Shown: positions 41,946 through 47,505 of the stretch, piece after piece
Layout: every line of letters starts with the position of its first letter
How positions within the stretch are numbered: position 1 is the stretch's first letter
Source: Actinomycetota bacterium
GTDB taxonomy: Bacteria; Actinomycetota; Actinomycetes; Actinomycetales; Microbacteriaceae
Length of the DNA stretch: 64,000 bases
Direction: 5' to 3'
NCBI GenBank assembly: GCA_046046195.1
Contig: JBJOKH010000010.1
Span: 2,837-66,836 of the forward strand
The notes under the pieces: generated by a model
What the model was told of the DNA's origin: nothing
Seen by the model: the letters and a program-made list of their open reading frames with translations, nothing else
Databases searched by the model: none
Position numbers and translations under genes: made by a program

Positions 41946-44549
41946 TTAGACTCTTGGCTTCTCACGCATCTCGAAGGTTTGAATGATGTCTTCTAGTTCA
42001 AGTTCGTTGAAGCCACCAAGACCGATACCACACTCGAAGTCAGTCTTGACTTCATTGGCGTCGTCCTTGAATCGCTTCAGTGACTCAACTTTTAGGTTGT
42101 CAGCGATGATGTTGCCGCCGCGAAGGACGCGAGCCAAAGAGTTTCGCTTGATTGAACCAGAGCGAACGATCGAACCGGCGATGGTGCCAACCTTCGAGGA
42201 CTTGAATAGTTCACGAACCTCGGCTGTACCAAGCTCGAATTCTTCGTACTCAGGCTTGAGCATTCCCTTGAGGGCTTTTTCAATGTCCTCAAGAGCCGAG
42301 TAGATGACGGAGTAGAAGCGAATGTCCACGCCTTCTCTGTCGGCGCGATCCTTGGCCTTGTTATCCGGCTTGACGTTGAATCCAATAATGATGGCGTTGT
42401 CAACGGTGGCAAGGTTAACGTCGGACTCGGTGACAGCACCAACGCCTCGGTGAATGATTCGTAGCTGGACGGAGTCGTCCACCTCGATTTTGAGAAGCGA
42501 GTCTTCCAGAGCTTCAACCGCACCGGATACGTCACCCTTGATGACCAAATTGAGGGATTCAACCTTGCCATCTTCAAGGGCCTTGGTGAAGTCTTCAAGA
42601 CTTACGCGCTTTCTGGTCTTAGCAAGAAGAGCGTTTCTGTCGGCAGCTTCACGTTTTTCGGCGATCTGTCTTGCCTGGCGCTCGTCGTCGGTGACAACAA
42701 ACGTGTCGCCCGCGCGTGGAACACTCTGGAGTCCAAGAACCTGAACCGGTCTCGAAGGAGTTGCGGCCTCGACAGGCTCACCATCTTCGTTGAACATCGC
42801 ACGAACGCGACCGTGAGCACTTCCAGCAACAATCGAGTCACCAACGTTCAAGGTACCGGACTGAATCAGAACGGTTGCAACCGCTCCACGACCCTTGTCC
42901 AGGTTGGCTTCAATAGCCACACCGCGAGCGTCCTTGTTAGGGTTGGCACGCATGTCTAGAGCAGCATCGGCGGTAAGAAGCACTGCATCGAGCAGCTGGG
43001 TGATTCCCTGACCCTTCAGAGCAGAAACCGGCACGAACATAACGTCACCACCGTATTCTTCGGCGACCAAGTTGAATTCGGTTAGCTGTTGCTTGACCTT
43101 GTCAGGGTTTGCACCTTCCTTATCAACCTTGTTGATGGCAACCACAATCGGTACACCAGCTGACTGAGCGTGGTTTAACGCTTCCACAGTCTGAGGCATA
43201 ACACCGTCATCGGCTGCGACAACCAAGATGGCGATGTCAGTGACCTGTGCACCACGAGCACGCATGGCTGTAAACGCCTCGTGACCCGGGGTGTCGATGA
43301 AAGTGATTGCTCGGTCTTGACCTTCGTGCGTGGTGTGAACCTGGTACGCACCGATGTGCTGGGTGATACCACCGGCTTCCCCGGCTTGAACGTTCGCGTT
43401 TCGAATCGAGTCCAAAAGCGCAGTCTTACCGTGATCAACGTGACCCATGACCGTGACAACAGGTGGTCTTGCTACAAGGTCTGCCTCGTCATCGTCGTAG
43501 TCGGCTGAAATGTCCAAACCGAATCCTTCGAATAGCTCTCGCTCTTCGTCCTCAGGGGAAACAACTTCGATCTTGTAACCCAGTTCAGCTCCAAGAATCT
43601 GGAAGGTGTCTTCGTCTAGCGATGCGGTAGCGGTTGCCATCTGACCAAGTGCAAATAGCACAGTGATCAGCTGACCAGCGTTGGCATCGATCTTGTCTGC
43701 GAAATCTTGAATTGAAGCTCCGCGGCGTAGACGAATAACAGTTGTTCCGTCACCGCGTGGCACAACTGCGCCACCAAGGCTTGGAACACTTCTTTGTTCG
43801 AATTCTTCTCTCTTGGCGCGCTTAGACTTTCGAGCCTTGCTCTGTCCTCTTGCTCCGCCTTTACCGAATGCACCAGCGGTACCACCGCCAACACCTCTTC
43901 CACGTCCACCGGCAGGTCCTCTGCCTGGGAATCCTCCGGCTGGTGGTGCGCCTCCAAATCCCGGCTTCGCTCCGCCGAAACCTGGACGCGATCCTGAACC
44001 GCCAGCTGGTCTTGCTCCAGGTCTTGGAGCTCCGCCTTCTGGTCTTGATCCAGGGCGTGGTGCGCCTGGTCTTGGAGTTCCAGGTCTTGCCATGCCTTGT
44101 GCTGCGTTGAATGGATTATTTCCAGGTCTTGCCATCGGACGAGGAATTCCCATTCCCTGACTTGAAGCAAATGGGTTATTTCCAGGTCTTGGAACTCCAG
44201 GAACAGAGGATGCAGCAGGAGGAGCTTTTGGTGCATCGGTAATTGAACTTGGAGCAAGTCTTGAAGTTTTCTTTTTTGGCTCTGCAGGTTCTGAAGGCTC
44301 AGCAGTTTCCGATACAACTTCGGCGGCGGCAGCAGTTTTCTTAGTAGCGGCCTTGGGCTTAGCTACCTTCTTTACTTCATCGGCAGGCTTTGCGTCAGGG
44401 AAGGCAGCGCGTAGTTTCTTAGCGATCGGGGGTGCAATTGTTGAAGACCCGCTCTTGACGTATTCGCCGAGCTCTTCAAGTTTGGCCAGAGCCACTTTGG
44501 TATCAATACCAAGTTCTTTGGCTACGTCGTAAACACGTGGTAGCGCCAC
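41946..44549 (-). CDS. infB: Translation initiation factor IF-2
   Basis: [21 protein letters not shown]; Pro/Gly-rich N-terminal linker with RPGNNPF repeats. Confidence 0.99.
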
Positions 44550-44589
44550 TTACTTCTCCTGTCTGGGCCTTCCCAAACAGGGCAGGCCG

Positions 44590-44638
44590 TTAAAGCTGTT
44601 GGGTACTCATTTCGAGATACTCATTTGATTTCCAACAT
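44590..44638 (-). other. Chain of three AUGA-overlapping mini-ORFs (MLEIK, MSISK, MSTQQL) in the infB leader
   Basis: ATG TTG GAA ATC AAA TGA (44638-44621); ATG AGT ATC TCG AAA TGA (44624-44607); ATG AGT ACC CAA CAG CTT TAA (44610-44590). Confidence 0.65.
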
Positions 44639-44745
44639 CTTTTCTGCCTACTTCTTATTGATAAAGGGTTCAAACCCAATTGACCATTTGGTCCGTGGCA
44701 ACTAAACCACCAAAGGCCAGTCTAGGCCCAAACCCCCGAAACGCT

Positions 44746-45723
44746 CTAGTCGTCTTCCAAAATACTGTCGGGCTGGATGTCGATCTTGGCTCCGGTCAGC
44801 TTGGCTGCCAGCCTGGCATTCTGGCCTTCTTTTCCAATTGCCAGCGACAGCTGGAAATCAGGCACCAGGACCCTGACCTGCCTATCCTCAGCGTTGATAA
44901 TAAATGAGTCGGACACCTTAGCTGGTGAAAGTGCGTGAGCCACAAACTCTGGCAAATCCTCTGAGAAATCCACTATGTCAATTTTTTCGTCGTTCAGTTC
45001 GTTTTGTACGGCACGAACCCTCTGGCCCAGCTCACCGATGCAGGCTCCCTTTGCATTGACGGCCGGATCGTTCGCGCGAACCGCGATCTTGGTGCGGTGA
45101 CCTGCTTCTCGGGCAACCGAGACAATTTCAACAACACCATCGGCAATTTCAGGAACCTCCATGGCAAAGAGCTTTCGCACCAATCCCGGGTGAGTTCTGG
45201 AGACTGTGACCTGAGGACCCTTGGTGCCCTTGGAAACGTTAGTGACGTATACCCTGATTCGCTTGCCGTGTGAATAGTCCTCGCCTGGAACTTGTTCTTC
45301 GGGAGGCATGATTGCTTCGATTGAACCAAGGTCTACGTAGACCATGTATGAACGCTGGCCCTGCTGAATGGTTCCTGCGACAATATCGCCGTCTTTGCCC
45401 TTGAACTCTCCAAAGAGTCCTTCATCATTGATGTCGCGAAGTCGGGAGGCAATGACCTGCTTTGCTGCACTGGCTGCAATTCGACCGAAGCCATCTGGAG
45501 TGACTTCAGCTTCTGGCGCTTCATTGCCCTCTTCATCAACCTTGATTGCAAAAATCTGAACGTGACCTGTTTTCTGGTCCAGGACTGCTCGCGCTTTATC
45601 GGTATTTCCTGCGCTGCGTTGGTAAGCGGCCAGAATTGCGGCCTCGATTATTTCTACGAGCTCCTTGAAAGGAATCTCTTTTTCGCGCTCGAGTACTTTG
45701 AGTACACTCAGGTCGATATCCAT
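44746..45723 (-). CDS. nusA: Transcription termination/antitermination factor NusA
   Basis: FGRIAA..AKQ, AREAGHRTK, LSLAIGKEGQNARLA; start MDIDL (45723) with GGAGG SD. Confidence 0.97.
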   Translation of the reverse strand: MDIDLSVLKVLEREKEIPFKELVEIIEAAILAAYQRSAGNTDKARAVLDQKTGHVQIFAIKVDEEGNEAPEAEVTPDGFGRIAASAAKQVIASRLRDINDEGLFGEFKGKDGDIVAGTIQQGQRSYMVYVDLGSIEAIMPPEEQVPGEDYSHGKRIRVYVTNVSKGTKGPQVTVSRTHPGLVRKLFAMEVPEIADGVVEIVSVAREAGHRTKIAVRANDPAVNAKGACIGELGQRVRAVQNELNDEKIDIVDFSEDLPEFVAHALSPAKVSDSFIINAEDRQVRVLVPDFQLSLAIGKEGQNARLAAKLTGAKIDIQPDSILEDD

Positions 45724-45744
45724 CGACGACACCTCCAAACGCTA

Positions 45745-47505
45745 TTAAATTTCAGATAAGGCTGATTCTAGCTTGATAGAACGCCTTTCCCCACTCCTGC
45801 GATTCCATAGCTCGACCTCACCGGTTTCGAGACCCTTTCCGACAATCAAAACCTTAGGAACACCCAGCAGTTCGGCATCCGAGAACTTAACCCCAGGGGA
45901 AACTTTGGCTCGGTCATCTAGCAAAACTGTTTTGCCAGTTGACTCAATTTCAGCTGCCAGTTTTTCAGCGGCAACAAAAACTGCGTCATCTTTGCCAGCG
46001 GCGACCACATGCACATCAGCAGGAGCCACGGACTCTGGCCAAATGAGACCCTTGTCATCGTTGTTTGCCTCTGCCAAAACTGCAACCAGACGGGTCACTC
46101 CAATGCCGTAAGACCCCATTGTCACGGTGACAAGTTTTCCGTTTTCATCAAGAACCTTTAGATCAAGTGCCTCGGCATACTTTCTTCCAAGCTGGAACAC
46201 GTGACCAATTTCGATTCCGCGCGCAAGTTCAAGCGGACCTGAACCATCTGGGGCTTGATCGCCGGCCCTGACTTCAGCGATGTCGCAAATGCCATCCGAT
46301 TCAAAGTCTCGCCCTGCCACAAGATGAAACACGTGCTTTTGGTCAACGTTTGCGCCGGTTATCCATGAAGTGCCGCGTACAACTCTTGGATCTAGCAAAT
46401 ACTTGATGCCTGCTGTTGCCTTCTCGCCAAGGAACTGTTTTCCATCCTTGGTTGGACCGATGTATCCCCTGACCAACGCGGGGTACTTTGCGAAGTCTTC
46501 TTCGGTTGCTTGAGAAACCTCACTTGGTGAAAAGGCTGCTTCAGCTCTTTTTTCGTCGACTTCCCTATCTCCTGGAATTCCAACAATCACAAGAGATCTC
46601 TTACCCTCTGGTGAAGTAAGAGCGAGAACTACGTTCTTCAAGGTGTCAGCTGCATTCCATGCCGAACCATCCGGCTTCTTAACCTTTGCGTTAGCTAAGT
46701 CAACCAAGGTCTTTATAGTCGGAGTATCTGGAGAGTCGTGTACCTCGGCAGCAGGTTGGGAACCAATTTCAATTTCCTTTGGTGCAACCGTTGTAACTGC
46801 CTCGACGTTGGCAGCGTATCCGCCAGCAGATCTAACAAAAGTGTCTTCGCCAATTGGTGAAGGTGAAAGGAATTCTTCCGACTTAGATCCGCCCATGGCG
46901 CCAGCGTCAGCTTTGACAATTACGTAGTCAACACCCAGTCTTGTAAATATGCGTTCGTAGGCAGCTCGCTGAGCCTGGTAAGAAACCTCAAGACCTTCGT
47001 CGTTCACGTCAAAGCTGTAAGCATCCTTCATAACAAACTCACGCCCGCGAAGAAGACCAGCTCTTGGTCTTGCCTCGTCACGGTATTTGTTTTGAATCTG
47101 ATACAGGGAAAGCGGAAGGTCTTTGTAGCTGGAATACATGTCCTTTACGAGCAGTGTGAAAACTTCCTCGTGGGTCGGAGCCAAAAGATAATCTGCCTTT
47201 TTGCGGTCCTGGAGTCTAAAGAGATTGTCGCCATACTCGGTCCAGCGTCCGGTTGTTTCAAAAGGTTCCCTAGGCAAAAGGGCTGGAAAAAAAACTTCCT
47301 GCGAACCGGCGTTTGCCATCTCCTCGCGGACAATCTTTTCAATCTTTTCCTTGACCAGTAGCCCAAGTGGAAGCCAGGTATAGATACCTGGAGCTGCTCT
47401 GCGAATGTATCCGGCTCGAAGCAAAAGCTTGTGGCCTTGAACGTCAGCGTCGGACGGGTCCTCGCGAAGGGTGCGAAGGAACAGTTGACTTAGGCGGATA
47501 GGCAT
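45745..47505 (-). CDS. proS: Proline-tRNA ligase (with editing domain)
   Basis: [41 protein letters not shown]. Confidence 0.98.

Follow-up and report, generated by a model that had tools for sequence, protein, structure and literature searches.

Introduction

In the ermC, cat-86 and cmlA mRNAs, drug-induced stalling of a ribosome on a single leader open reading frame (ORF) opens the ribosome-binding site (RBS) of the next gene, and in infC and prfB the mRNA of a translation factor itself carries a test substrate for the step at which that factor acts, namely an AUU start codon read by IF3 and a UGA frameshift site for RF2, respectively. We know of no comparable autoregulatory device documented for infB, the gene of IF2. 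Here we describe a computational analysis of the infB leader in a 64,000-nucleotide stretch of DNA, referred to below as the window, from a member of the Microbacteriaceae (Actinomycetota; GenBank contig JBJOKH010000010.1). On the minus strand of the window, infB is preceded by three micro-ORFs (upstream ORFs uORF1, uORF2 and uORF3) that are chained to one another by stop-start overlaps.

Termination-reinitiation at NUGA or URRUG sites operates where the stop codon of one ORF and the start codon of the next overlap by 4 nt or 1 nt (Huber et al. 2019, PMC6728339; D'Halluin et al., bioRxiv 10.1101/2022.06.01.494293), and about 58% of such overlapping downstream ORFs in M. tuberculosis are without a canonical Shine-Dalgarno (SD) sequence (D'Halluin et al., bioRxiv 10.1101/2022.06.01.494293). 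In yeast, serial re-initiation over the very short uORFs 1 to 4 of GCN4 reads the availability of the factor that delivers initiator tRNA (e.g. PMC4793210). A uORF attenuator of Actinobacteria has been described for whiB7/wblC (PMC7157823), and one feedback on the infB operon in E. coli is mediated by NusA, according to a title in the reference list of PMC6511841. General surveys of the NUGA overlaps of M. tuberculosis are silent on infB, and a full-text literature search returned no account of uORFs, leader structure or autoregulation at actinobacterial infB.

The chain ahead of infB resembles the NUGA/URRUG cases in its 4-nt AUGA (or 1-nt UGAUG) overlaps and in its downstream ORFs, which are without an SD sequence. 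The known cases, however, are gene pairs or a uORF with a gene and serve co-expression, whereas the infB leader has two or three serial links of 3-7-codon ORFs that encode nothing lasting, and its last micro-ORF does not overlap infB but ends at what is predicted to be an RNA switch. The likeness to GCN4, which has several very short uORFs ahead of the regulated ORF, is an analogy of logic only and would hold if IF2 is what is sensed. GCN4 is eukaryotic and scanning-dependent, its uORFs are separated and no RNA switch takes part, whereas the ORFs of the infB chain overlap by 4 nt; moreover, the gene regulated there encodes a transcription factor and not the initiation factor itself. The whiB7/wblC uORF shares with the infB leader, as we interpret it, the conversion of ribosome behaviour on an actinobacterial leader into the expression of a translation-stress gene. 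It differs in acting on transcription termination and in having one longer uORF, and no sequence relation between it and the infB leader was found.

Results

A chain of overlapping micro-ORFs ahead of infB is conserved across Actinomycetes

The three micro-ORFs of the window, of 5, 5 and 6 codons, lie at 44638-44590 on the minus strand ahead of infB. By direct reading, uORF1 (44638-44621; ATG TTG GAA ATC AAA TGA, peptide MLEIK), which we regard as the ancestral first micro-ORF, is followed by uORF2 (44624-44607; ATG AGT ATC TCG AAA TGA, MSISK), and the latter by uORF3 (44610-44590; ATG AGT ACC CAA CAG CTT TAA, MSTQQL). The start codons of uORF2 and uORF3 overlap the stop codons of uORF1 and uORF2 as AUGA (4 nt, no spacer), with a period of 14 nt, and the TAA of uORF3 closes the chain, leaving 40 nt between it and the infB GTG (44549-44547). 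A first-pass annotation of this locus, made from the sequence alone, had listed the same ORFs, coordinates, overlaps, period and gap, and our reading of the minus strand agreed with it exactly. Together the three micro-ORFs occupy all three frames, so that by geometry any upstream ribosome would be stopped ahead of the hairpin that follows the chain.

A chain of at least three micro-ORFs arose in only 0.04% of dinucleotide shuffles of the 196-nt nusA-infB spacer. When both strands of the 1.15-Mb genome that contains the window (G000) were scanned, four chains of at least three ATGA-linked micro-ORFs were found in total; the other three, at C3:49036-49105 (+), C34:37598-37634 (-) and C44:5914-5959 (+), are probably due to chance. 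Because the genome holds four such chains, the window alone proves nothing: taken by itself its sequence leaves room for chance, and it is conservation across leaders that decides.

Leaders were retrieved by anchoring on the IF2 N-terminus, which yielded 79 leaders from named genomes (including Streptomyces, Nonomuraea, Actinomadura, Frankiaceae, Nanopelagicales, Kineosporiaceae and others) and 68 leaders evenly sampled over the class Actinomycetes (36 GTDB families). A chain of at least three was present in 62 of the 68 leaders of the class sample, versus 0.76% of their own shuffles. At the family level, such chains were found in 34 of the 36 sampled GTDB families, where they ended 20-63 nt (mostly 33-63 nt) before infB; the two exceptional families kept two links and had a longer last ORF with the same end position. 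The overlap geometry is thus kept across the class despite diverging codons, which was the check that the first-pass annotation had put forward, and the ATGAG repeats that it mentioned upstream of infB in other Actinobacteria were indeed present. At least two links were found in 99 of 99 leaders of a set composed of a same-genus sample, one order-level relative and a first scan of genome contigs. In other classes of the phylum, infB was locatable next to ylxR in 16 families; ylxR abuts infB in these, and none of them showed a chain. The tallies for the class and for the other classes include three unpublished genomes (G217, G127 and G087), and no claim depends on those three.

A covariance model, R1, was trained on 21 Actinomycetes leaders from outside Rhodoluna. 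A whole-genome search of the window's genome with this model gave a match at G000:C19:47383-47491(-), which is 44547-44655 of the window (E = 5.7e-6). This minus-strand interval comprises the whole conserved infB leader, with an upstream box, the chain, the putative switch, the SD sequence and the initiation codon; within the genus, conservation detected by BLAST begins at approximately 44649. A phylum-wide search with R1 scored the best 25 of thousands of candidates per genome, which makes its negatives unreliable, and it was superseded by the protein-anchored retrieval. The sole match that it gave outside the class (L118, from the best 25 candidates per genome) lay inside an SDR-like coding region and was discarded. 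We conclude that the element is real, ancient and apparently undescribed.

Some leaders departed from the common form. In four variants (L132, L136, L148 of family f68, and L159 of family f74), uORF2 and uORF3 were replaced by a single ORF of 13-21 codons that still ended at the foot of the hairpin. Leaders with four micro-ORFs were found in L133 (f84), L128 (f97) and L138 (f69), where one 11- or 14-nt unit was duplicated (e.g. MTTR three times); because the period equals 2 modulo 3, duplication of a unit leaves the chain intact. In a genome of the same order (L116, G032:C12:640987-641062), other sequence of about 100 nt separated a chain encoding METR, MSSQR and MSA from any IF2-like start, and no match in that genome was obtained with the profile of the IF2 N-terminus.

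We also compared the leader with known elements. The best matches of the window in Rfam 15 had E values above 1, far below the gathering scores, and no Rfam match at E 0.1 or better was obtained for the Streptomyces, f19 or f2 leaders. The statement of the first-pass annotation that it knew of no named element for this arrangement is therefore consistent with what we found in Rfam and the literature. A terminator scan of the minus strand between 44300 and 45000 detected no terminator-like site, the hairpins running into purine-rich SD regions and not into a U tract, and a transcription attenuator or intrinsic terminator was dropped as a candidate for this reason. A promoter scan detected none on the minus strand of the nusA-infB spacer.

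The chain has the marks of translated sequence

Codon usage was tallied from 124 unique chains (360 ORFs; 230 linked ORFs). The links in these chains were ATGA in 217 cases, TGATG in 8, GTGA in 5, TAATG in 4 and TTGA in 2, and all internal stops are UGA by construction. Of 272 intervals from one ATGA to the next, counted without any ORF logic, 245 had a spacing of 8, 11, 14 or 17 nt. Start codons were ATG in 349 of the 360 ORFs, the remainder being GTG or TTG, and the terminal stop, which stands at a fixed position, was TAA in 63 chains, TAG in 41 and TGA in 20. The commonest architecture in the class was 4-5-6 codons. Codon 2 specified Ser (AGC/AGT) in 250 of the 360 ORFs and codon 3 specified Thr or Ala (ACN/GCN, with the third position free); the third positions of both codons varied synonymously. 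Of the 230 linked ORFs, 165 had CGA as their last sense codon; AAA stood there in the low-GC Rhodoluna/Aquiluna lineage. The 3-nt steps in spacing, the interchange of stop codons and the frame-preserving evolution suggest that the chain is translated. The encoded peptides are 3-7 residues long and highly variable past residue 3, and on these grounds a role as functional free peptides was rejected.

Complementarity to the anti-SD sequence distinguished the start sites. In the window, the predicted duplexes were -5.3 kcal/mol for uORF1, -3.3 for uORF2, -2.2 for uORF3 and -7.4 for infB, whose SD sequence AGGAG lies at 44556-44560 on the minus strand. The median values over 132 leaders were -4.5, -1.9, -1.9 and -7.9 kcal/mol, respectively, and the infB duplex was at or below -6 kcal/mol in 99% of them. 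On this basis uORF1 is the only micro-ORF predicted to recruit ribosomes itself, and the infB site is predicted to be strong. Because uORF2 and uORF3 are both without an SD sequence, they would be reachable solely by re-initiation. Both results bear out the first-pass annotation, which had credited only the first ATG with a purine-rich upstream stretch and had reasoned that a ribosome reaches uORF3 only after serial re-initiations.

uORF1 and its relationship to ylxR

In 15 of 19 same-genus loci, ylxR (DUF448, 85-95 amino acids) sits between nusA and infB, and in these loci uORF1 is the in-frame end of ylxR, consisting of its last five codons (...EQAETMLAKK*). In the genus, the stop of the ylxR frame is the TGA within the first AUGA, belongs to a TAATG, or lies 5 nt further on. 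In the window and three close relatives, ylxR has been deleted from the interval between the two genes (44550-44745, minus strand), and the leader has been kept whole from a point 13 nt ahead of the uORF1 ATG; a purine-rich, weakly SD-like tract before uORF1, AAGTAGGCAGAAAAG (44639-44653, minus strand), was retained after the deletion. No match to PF04296 (ylxR) was found anywhere in the window's genome assembly, which is 80.8% complete. Thus, the earlier treatment of uORF1 as a leader ORF holds for the window, where uORF1 stands alone with no ylxR preceding it, and fails in most same-genus relatives, where it forms the ylxR terminus.

Elsewhere in the class, ylxR mostly stops 60-100 nt before a free-standing uORF1. 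The ylxR frame has become fused to the chain, at the first or the second micro-ORF, independently in several lineages (L057, L073, L094, L144 and the Rhodoluna loci). Because the chain is apart from ylxR in most families and in-frame fusions occurred repeatedly and independently, the comparison indicates that uORF1 is an old leader ORF that was sometimes captured by ylxR and is not ylxR debris. The possibility that the micro-ORFs are neutral ylxR remnants was ruled out on the same ground of separation in most families.

Two mutually exclusive helices follow the chain

A stable helix begins 0-4 nt past the terminal stop in 121 of 131 leaders and mostly ends 12-16 nt before the infB start. In high-GC families, this helix (1:2, between segments 1 and 2) has the form GGUCCGG...CCGGACC; it was 85.7% paired over 21 diverse sequences, with UA-CG, GC-CG and GC-AU exchanges, and scored better than slid controls. 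Segment 2, the 3' arm of the post-chain hairpin, is also complementary to infB codons 3-6 (AAG GUC CGG G), which we call segment 3. The resulting helix 2:3, which is predicted to hold the SD sequence and GUG in a loop of 20-27 nt, was 95.8% paired over 56 distinct sequences versus at most 56% in slid controls. CG, UG, GU, GC, UA and AU pairs were all found at the third base of the Arg codon, and AU, GU and GC pairs at the Val/Ala codon. The median energy of the 2:3 duplex was -20.0 kcal/mol for native sequences versus -12.7 kcal/mol with shuffled upstream arms. Variants of segment 3 were matched by their leaders: KAR (GGCCCGCG) occurred with CGCGGGCC, KPR with CGGGGC, and KTR with CGGGUC. At infB codons 3-5 (AAG GUC CGG; leaders L031-L247), the third-position entropy was 0.19-0.69 versus 1.6-1.8 at codons 2, 6 and 10, a depression which indicates, at the level of sequence variation, that the synonymous sites of codons 3-5 are under selection acting on the RNA.

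The two helices share at least 5 nucleotides in 98 of 110 leaders, which makes them mutually exclusive, and segment 1 starts 0-5 nt past the last stop in 91 of 103 leaders. Both helices show covariation, and segment 1 adjoins the last stop of the chain. We mimicked a terminating ribosome by holding the stop and the following 10 nt single-stranded, a length that follows from the usual size of a ribosome footprint. Under this constraint, helix 2:3 was predicted to fold in 101 of 120 leaders. In family f19, which is presumably mycobacteria-like, judging in part from its IF2 N-terminus, folding and reading by eye suggest that an anti-SD sequence, CGCCUC, alternates between GAGGCG and the SD sequence. 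Misalignment between the two types of hairpin limited RNAalifold to 5 pairs on a mixed alignment of Rhodoluna and high-GC leaders, and the sets were split afterwards.

The putative switch in the window has a different closing partner

The IF2 of the window starts with VALPRV; the partner at codons 3-6 has been lost, and segment 3 is the 5' half of the SD sequence instead. Constrained folding of the window gave a hairpin A (GGCCU-G-CCC, loop UGUUU, GGG-A-AGGCC; 44566-44588, minus strand), which starts 1 nt past the uORF3 TAA, has segment 1 as its 5' arm (44580-44588), and folds at -15.0 kcal/mol with the SD sequence free; this would be the open state of the RBS. The closed state would be represented by hairpin B (44558-44581, minus strand; loop AAGG), found in both the minimum free energy (MFE) and the centroid fold of the leader. 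Here CCUGUUUGGG (44581-44572) pairs with CCCAGACAGG (44567-44558), which includes the first three nucleotides of the SD sequence. Hairpin B folds at -18.2 kcal/mol and has nucleotides in common with hairpin A.

Hairpin B was 92% paired over 16 family sequences, with compensatory double changes at 4 pairs versus 1.2 in shuffles, and many further variants of it were seen in Aquiluna and Rhodoluna. The leader of a related genus can form either alternative as a perfect helix, the two being 9 and 10 bp long. Within the Rhodoluna family, the alignment of which puts the 3' arm of hairpin A in two registers, this hairpin was followed by per-sequence folds, and individual compensations were noted by eye (AGCC...GGUU in L017 and GGUCUGCCC/GGGCAGACC in L149).

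Genes surrounding the leader

The gene downstream of the leader, infB (41946-44549, minus strand), has a GTG start and encodes an IF2 of 867 amino acids with the Pfam domains IF2_N, GTP_EFTU and IF-2, the N-terminus of which aligns with other actinobacterial IF2 proteins. Upstream, nusA (44746-45738, minus strand; NusA_N, S1 and KH_5) is separated from the chain without an intervening ylxR. The gene order by Pfam is ispG, proS, nusA, the leader, infB, rbfA and truB. The end of proS and the start of nusA are 6 nt apart (45738-45745, minus strand), and rimP is absent from its usual site upstream of nusA, that site being the only part of the genome in which rimP was sought; its absence there may be another loss in a streamlined genome. 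The nearest public relatives of the window are Rhodoluna metagenome-assembled genomes, followed by Aquiluna, both of the Microbacteriaceae.

Discussion

We propose that IF2 synthesis is set by an RNA switch operated by ribosomes, with the three micro-ORFs as its input arm. Ribosomes would initiate at uORF1 with its weak SD sequence, then terminate and re-initiate twice at SD-less AUG codons by way of the AUGA stop-start overlaps, and halt at the TAA of uORF3. Segment 1 of a putative three-segment switch begins 1 nt beyond this stop, a distance that ranges from 0 to 5 nt in the class. Pairing of segment 2 with segment 1, as in hairpin A, would leave the infB RBS free, whereas pairing of segment 2 with segment 3 would close it. 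In most Actinomycetes segment 3 would be infB codons 3-6, with the SD sequence and GUG in the loop; in Rhodoluna/Aquiluna it would be CCCAGACAGG, the 5' half of the SD sequence (hairpin B), and in f19 segment 2 appears to be an anti-SD sequence. A ribosome on the last stop would mask segment 1 and release segment 2 to close the site, so that IF2 synthesis would go down when the chain is translated and up when it is idle. The frequency of arrival at the last stop would climb steeply with initiation and re-initiation capacity (IF2, fMet-tRNA and free ribosomes), because the last stop requires three successive initiations on weak or absent SD sequences. Low capacity would favour the infB start with its strong SD sequence, and the net outcome would be negative feedback.

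From comparative data we infer that the infB leader is a variant form of leader-ORF translational control, and it is likewise from such data that we infer that the ORFs are translated, how far the ribosome footprint reaches, in which direction the effect goes and which quantity is sensed. That translation of the chain closes the infB site, and thereby provides negative feedback on initiation capacity, is a modelled outcome to which we give an even chance. More tentative is the fuller proposal that SD-less serial re-initiation turns initiation capacity, meaning IF2 with fMet-tRNA, into a steep GCN4-like signal read by a three-segment switch whose closing partner was re-invented at least three times (codons 3-6, the 5' half of the SD sequence, and anti-SD/SD pairing), an arrangement with no described bacterial counterpart.

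Several observations weigh against this model. A single uORF would be enough to work the switch, and the need for three is a matter of argument. In E. coli, according to the account in PMC12548453 of Yoo and RajBhandary (2008), IF2 overexpression raised re-initiation in cells with a modified tRNA defective in IF2 binding, and it is only from that setting that an IF2 dependence of re-initiation is known. The preference for Ser at codon 2 (250/360), Thr/Ala at codon 3, and CGA (165/230) or AAA as the last sense codon is left unexplained by the model and hints at peptide- or codon-specific effects; it also makes doubtful the proposal of the first-pass annotation that regulation would be peptide-independent. 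When segment 2 was swapped against foreign infB starts, minority lineages gave mixed results, with a modest energy gain for native partners; the overall gap of -6.5 kcal/mol in this test was dominated by the majority type, and the claim of covariation rests instead on the helix 2:3 pair counts. In most high-GC leaders (77 of 120), helix 2:3 was already present in the unconstrained MFE structure, and closure may be the default state of the site irrespective of the chain. Finally, with the stop and the next 10 nt blocked as by a ribosome on the TAA, the window retained only an 8-bp remnant of hairpin B with the SD nucleotides GGAG unpaired. In the window's lineage, then, folding suggests that termination at uORF3 could open rather than close the site.

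The last of these points leads to an alternative with the opposite sign, in which the chain brings ribosomes to infB or keeps them at hand for it: termination at uORF3 would melt the structure by the SD sequence, or a post-termination subunit would pass the refolding hairpin to reach it, and IF2 synthesis would go up, coupled to translation of the upstream nusA or ylxR. Besides the unpaired GGAG in the blocked window, the geometry is favourable, in that a folded hairpin leaves the stop and the SD sequence just a few nucleotides apart, and the ylxR frame continues into uORF1 in this genus, as it does, by independent fusions, in other lineages. In most families, however, a terminating ribosome would free segment 2 to pair with infB codons 3-6 and enclose the SD sequence and GUG, while the distance of 60-100 nt between ylxR and uORF1 in most lineages allows no direct coupling. 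infB also has a strong SD sequence of its own and would need no delivery, and homeostasis would not be expected from positive feedback on an initiation factor. We regard a positive effect of this kind as unlikely. A different question is what the chain responds to if the switch works as we have drawn it, and translation stress is as natural a signal as initiation capacity. Ribosomes could stall or fall off ahead of uORF3 under ribosome-targeting antibiotics, because RF2 runs short at the two UGA stops, because CGA is decoded slowly, or because short peptidyl-tRNAs drop off; segment 1 would then stay paired and IF2 synthesis would go up. The conserved Ser, Thr/Ala and CGA codons would fit such a signal, as would the fact that all internal stops are UGA, even if only by construction. 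A WhiB7 peak detected by chromatin immunoprecipitation upstream of infB in M. abscessus (PMC10727445) suggests that IF2 may belong to the antibiotic-stress response there, and, according to the title of a paper cited in PMC10192219 (Karimi et al. 1998), the P site is cleared of short peptidyl-tRNAs by IF1 and IF2. Nevertheless, CGA is replaced by the common codon AAA in low-GC Rhodoluna/Aquiluna, the peptides vary widely past residue 3, no stalling motif was identified, and nothing in our data separates stress from initiation capacity; we consider stress as the signal to be rather unlikely.

It could also be argued that the ATGA repeats are not translated at all and serve as tandem binding sites for YlxR, NusA, S1 or another protein, as a processing signal, or as a three-frame stop trap that shields the hairpin from read-through. 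The CGAUGAGYAC unit is conserved at the nucleotide level, its CUCGA part being read in different frames between lineages, and the three ORFs do cover the three frames and would stop any upstream ribosome before the hairpin. Against this, the spacing is quantised in 3-nt steps, a start that departs from ATG is GTG or TTG, and TAA, TAG and TGA replace one another as the terminal stop without a shift in position. Codons 2 and 3 show synonymous variation at their third positions, and a trap made of stops would not require conserved ATG codons. The element was also kept in a lineage without ylxR. These features make an untranslated repeat highly improbable.

If the leader acts as a ribosome-operated switch, its nearest relatives in design would be the ermC, cat-86 and cmlA leaders, which likewise have a short leader ORF before mutually exclusive helices and in which the position of the leader ribosome decides the pairing of the RBS, as is known there and predicted here. 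The infB leader differs in having three SD-poor ORFs chained by stop-start overlaps in place of a single leader ORF, and three segments in place of four. A ribosome at the end of the infB leader is predicted to close the site, whereas the drug-stalled ribosome opens it, and the closing partner lies mostly inside the coding region (codons 3-6), with no inducer or stalling peptide known. With infC and prfB the leader would share the use of a factor's own mRNA as a test substrate, which in those genes is a single non-canonical start or frameshift site.

IF3 and RF2 are the textbook examples of factors that test themselves, and the infB leader is a concrete, class-wide candidate for IF2 with defined nucleotides. 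The class with the leader includes Streptomyces, Nonomuraea and Frankia-like lineages and, as far as the sample allows, mycobacteria-like genomes, and the leader can serve as a compact marker of the class Actinomycetes. For annotators, it follows that in some lineages the tail annotated as the YlxR C-terminus, of which ...TMLAKK and ...MSAR are examples, is a captured leader ORF. The leader would also be a good natural substrate for the unresolved question of 30S versus 70S re-initiation and, if the proposed mechanism is true, it would be the first natural bacterial case in which serial stop-start re-initiation is used as a regulatory input.

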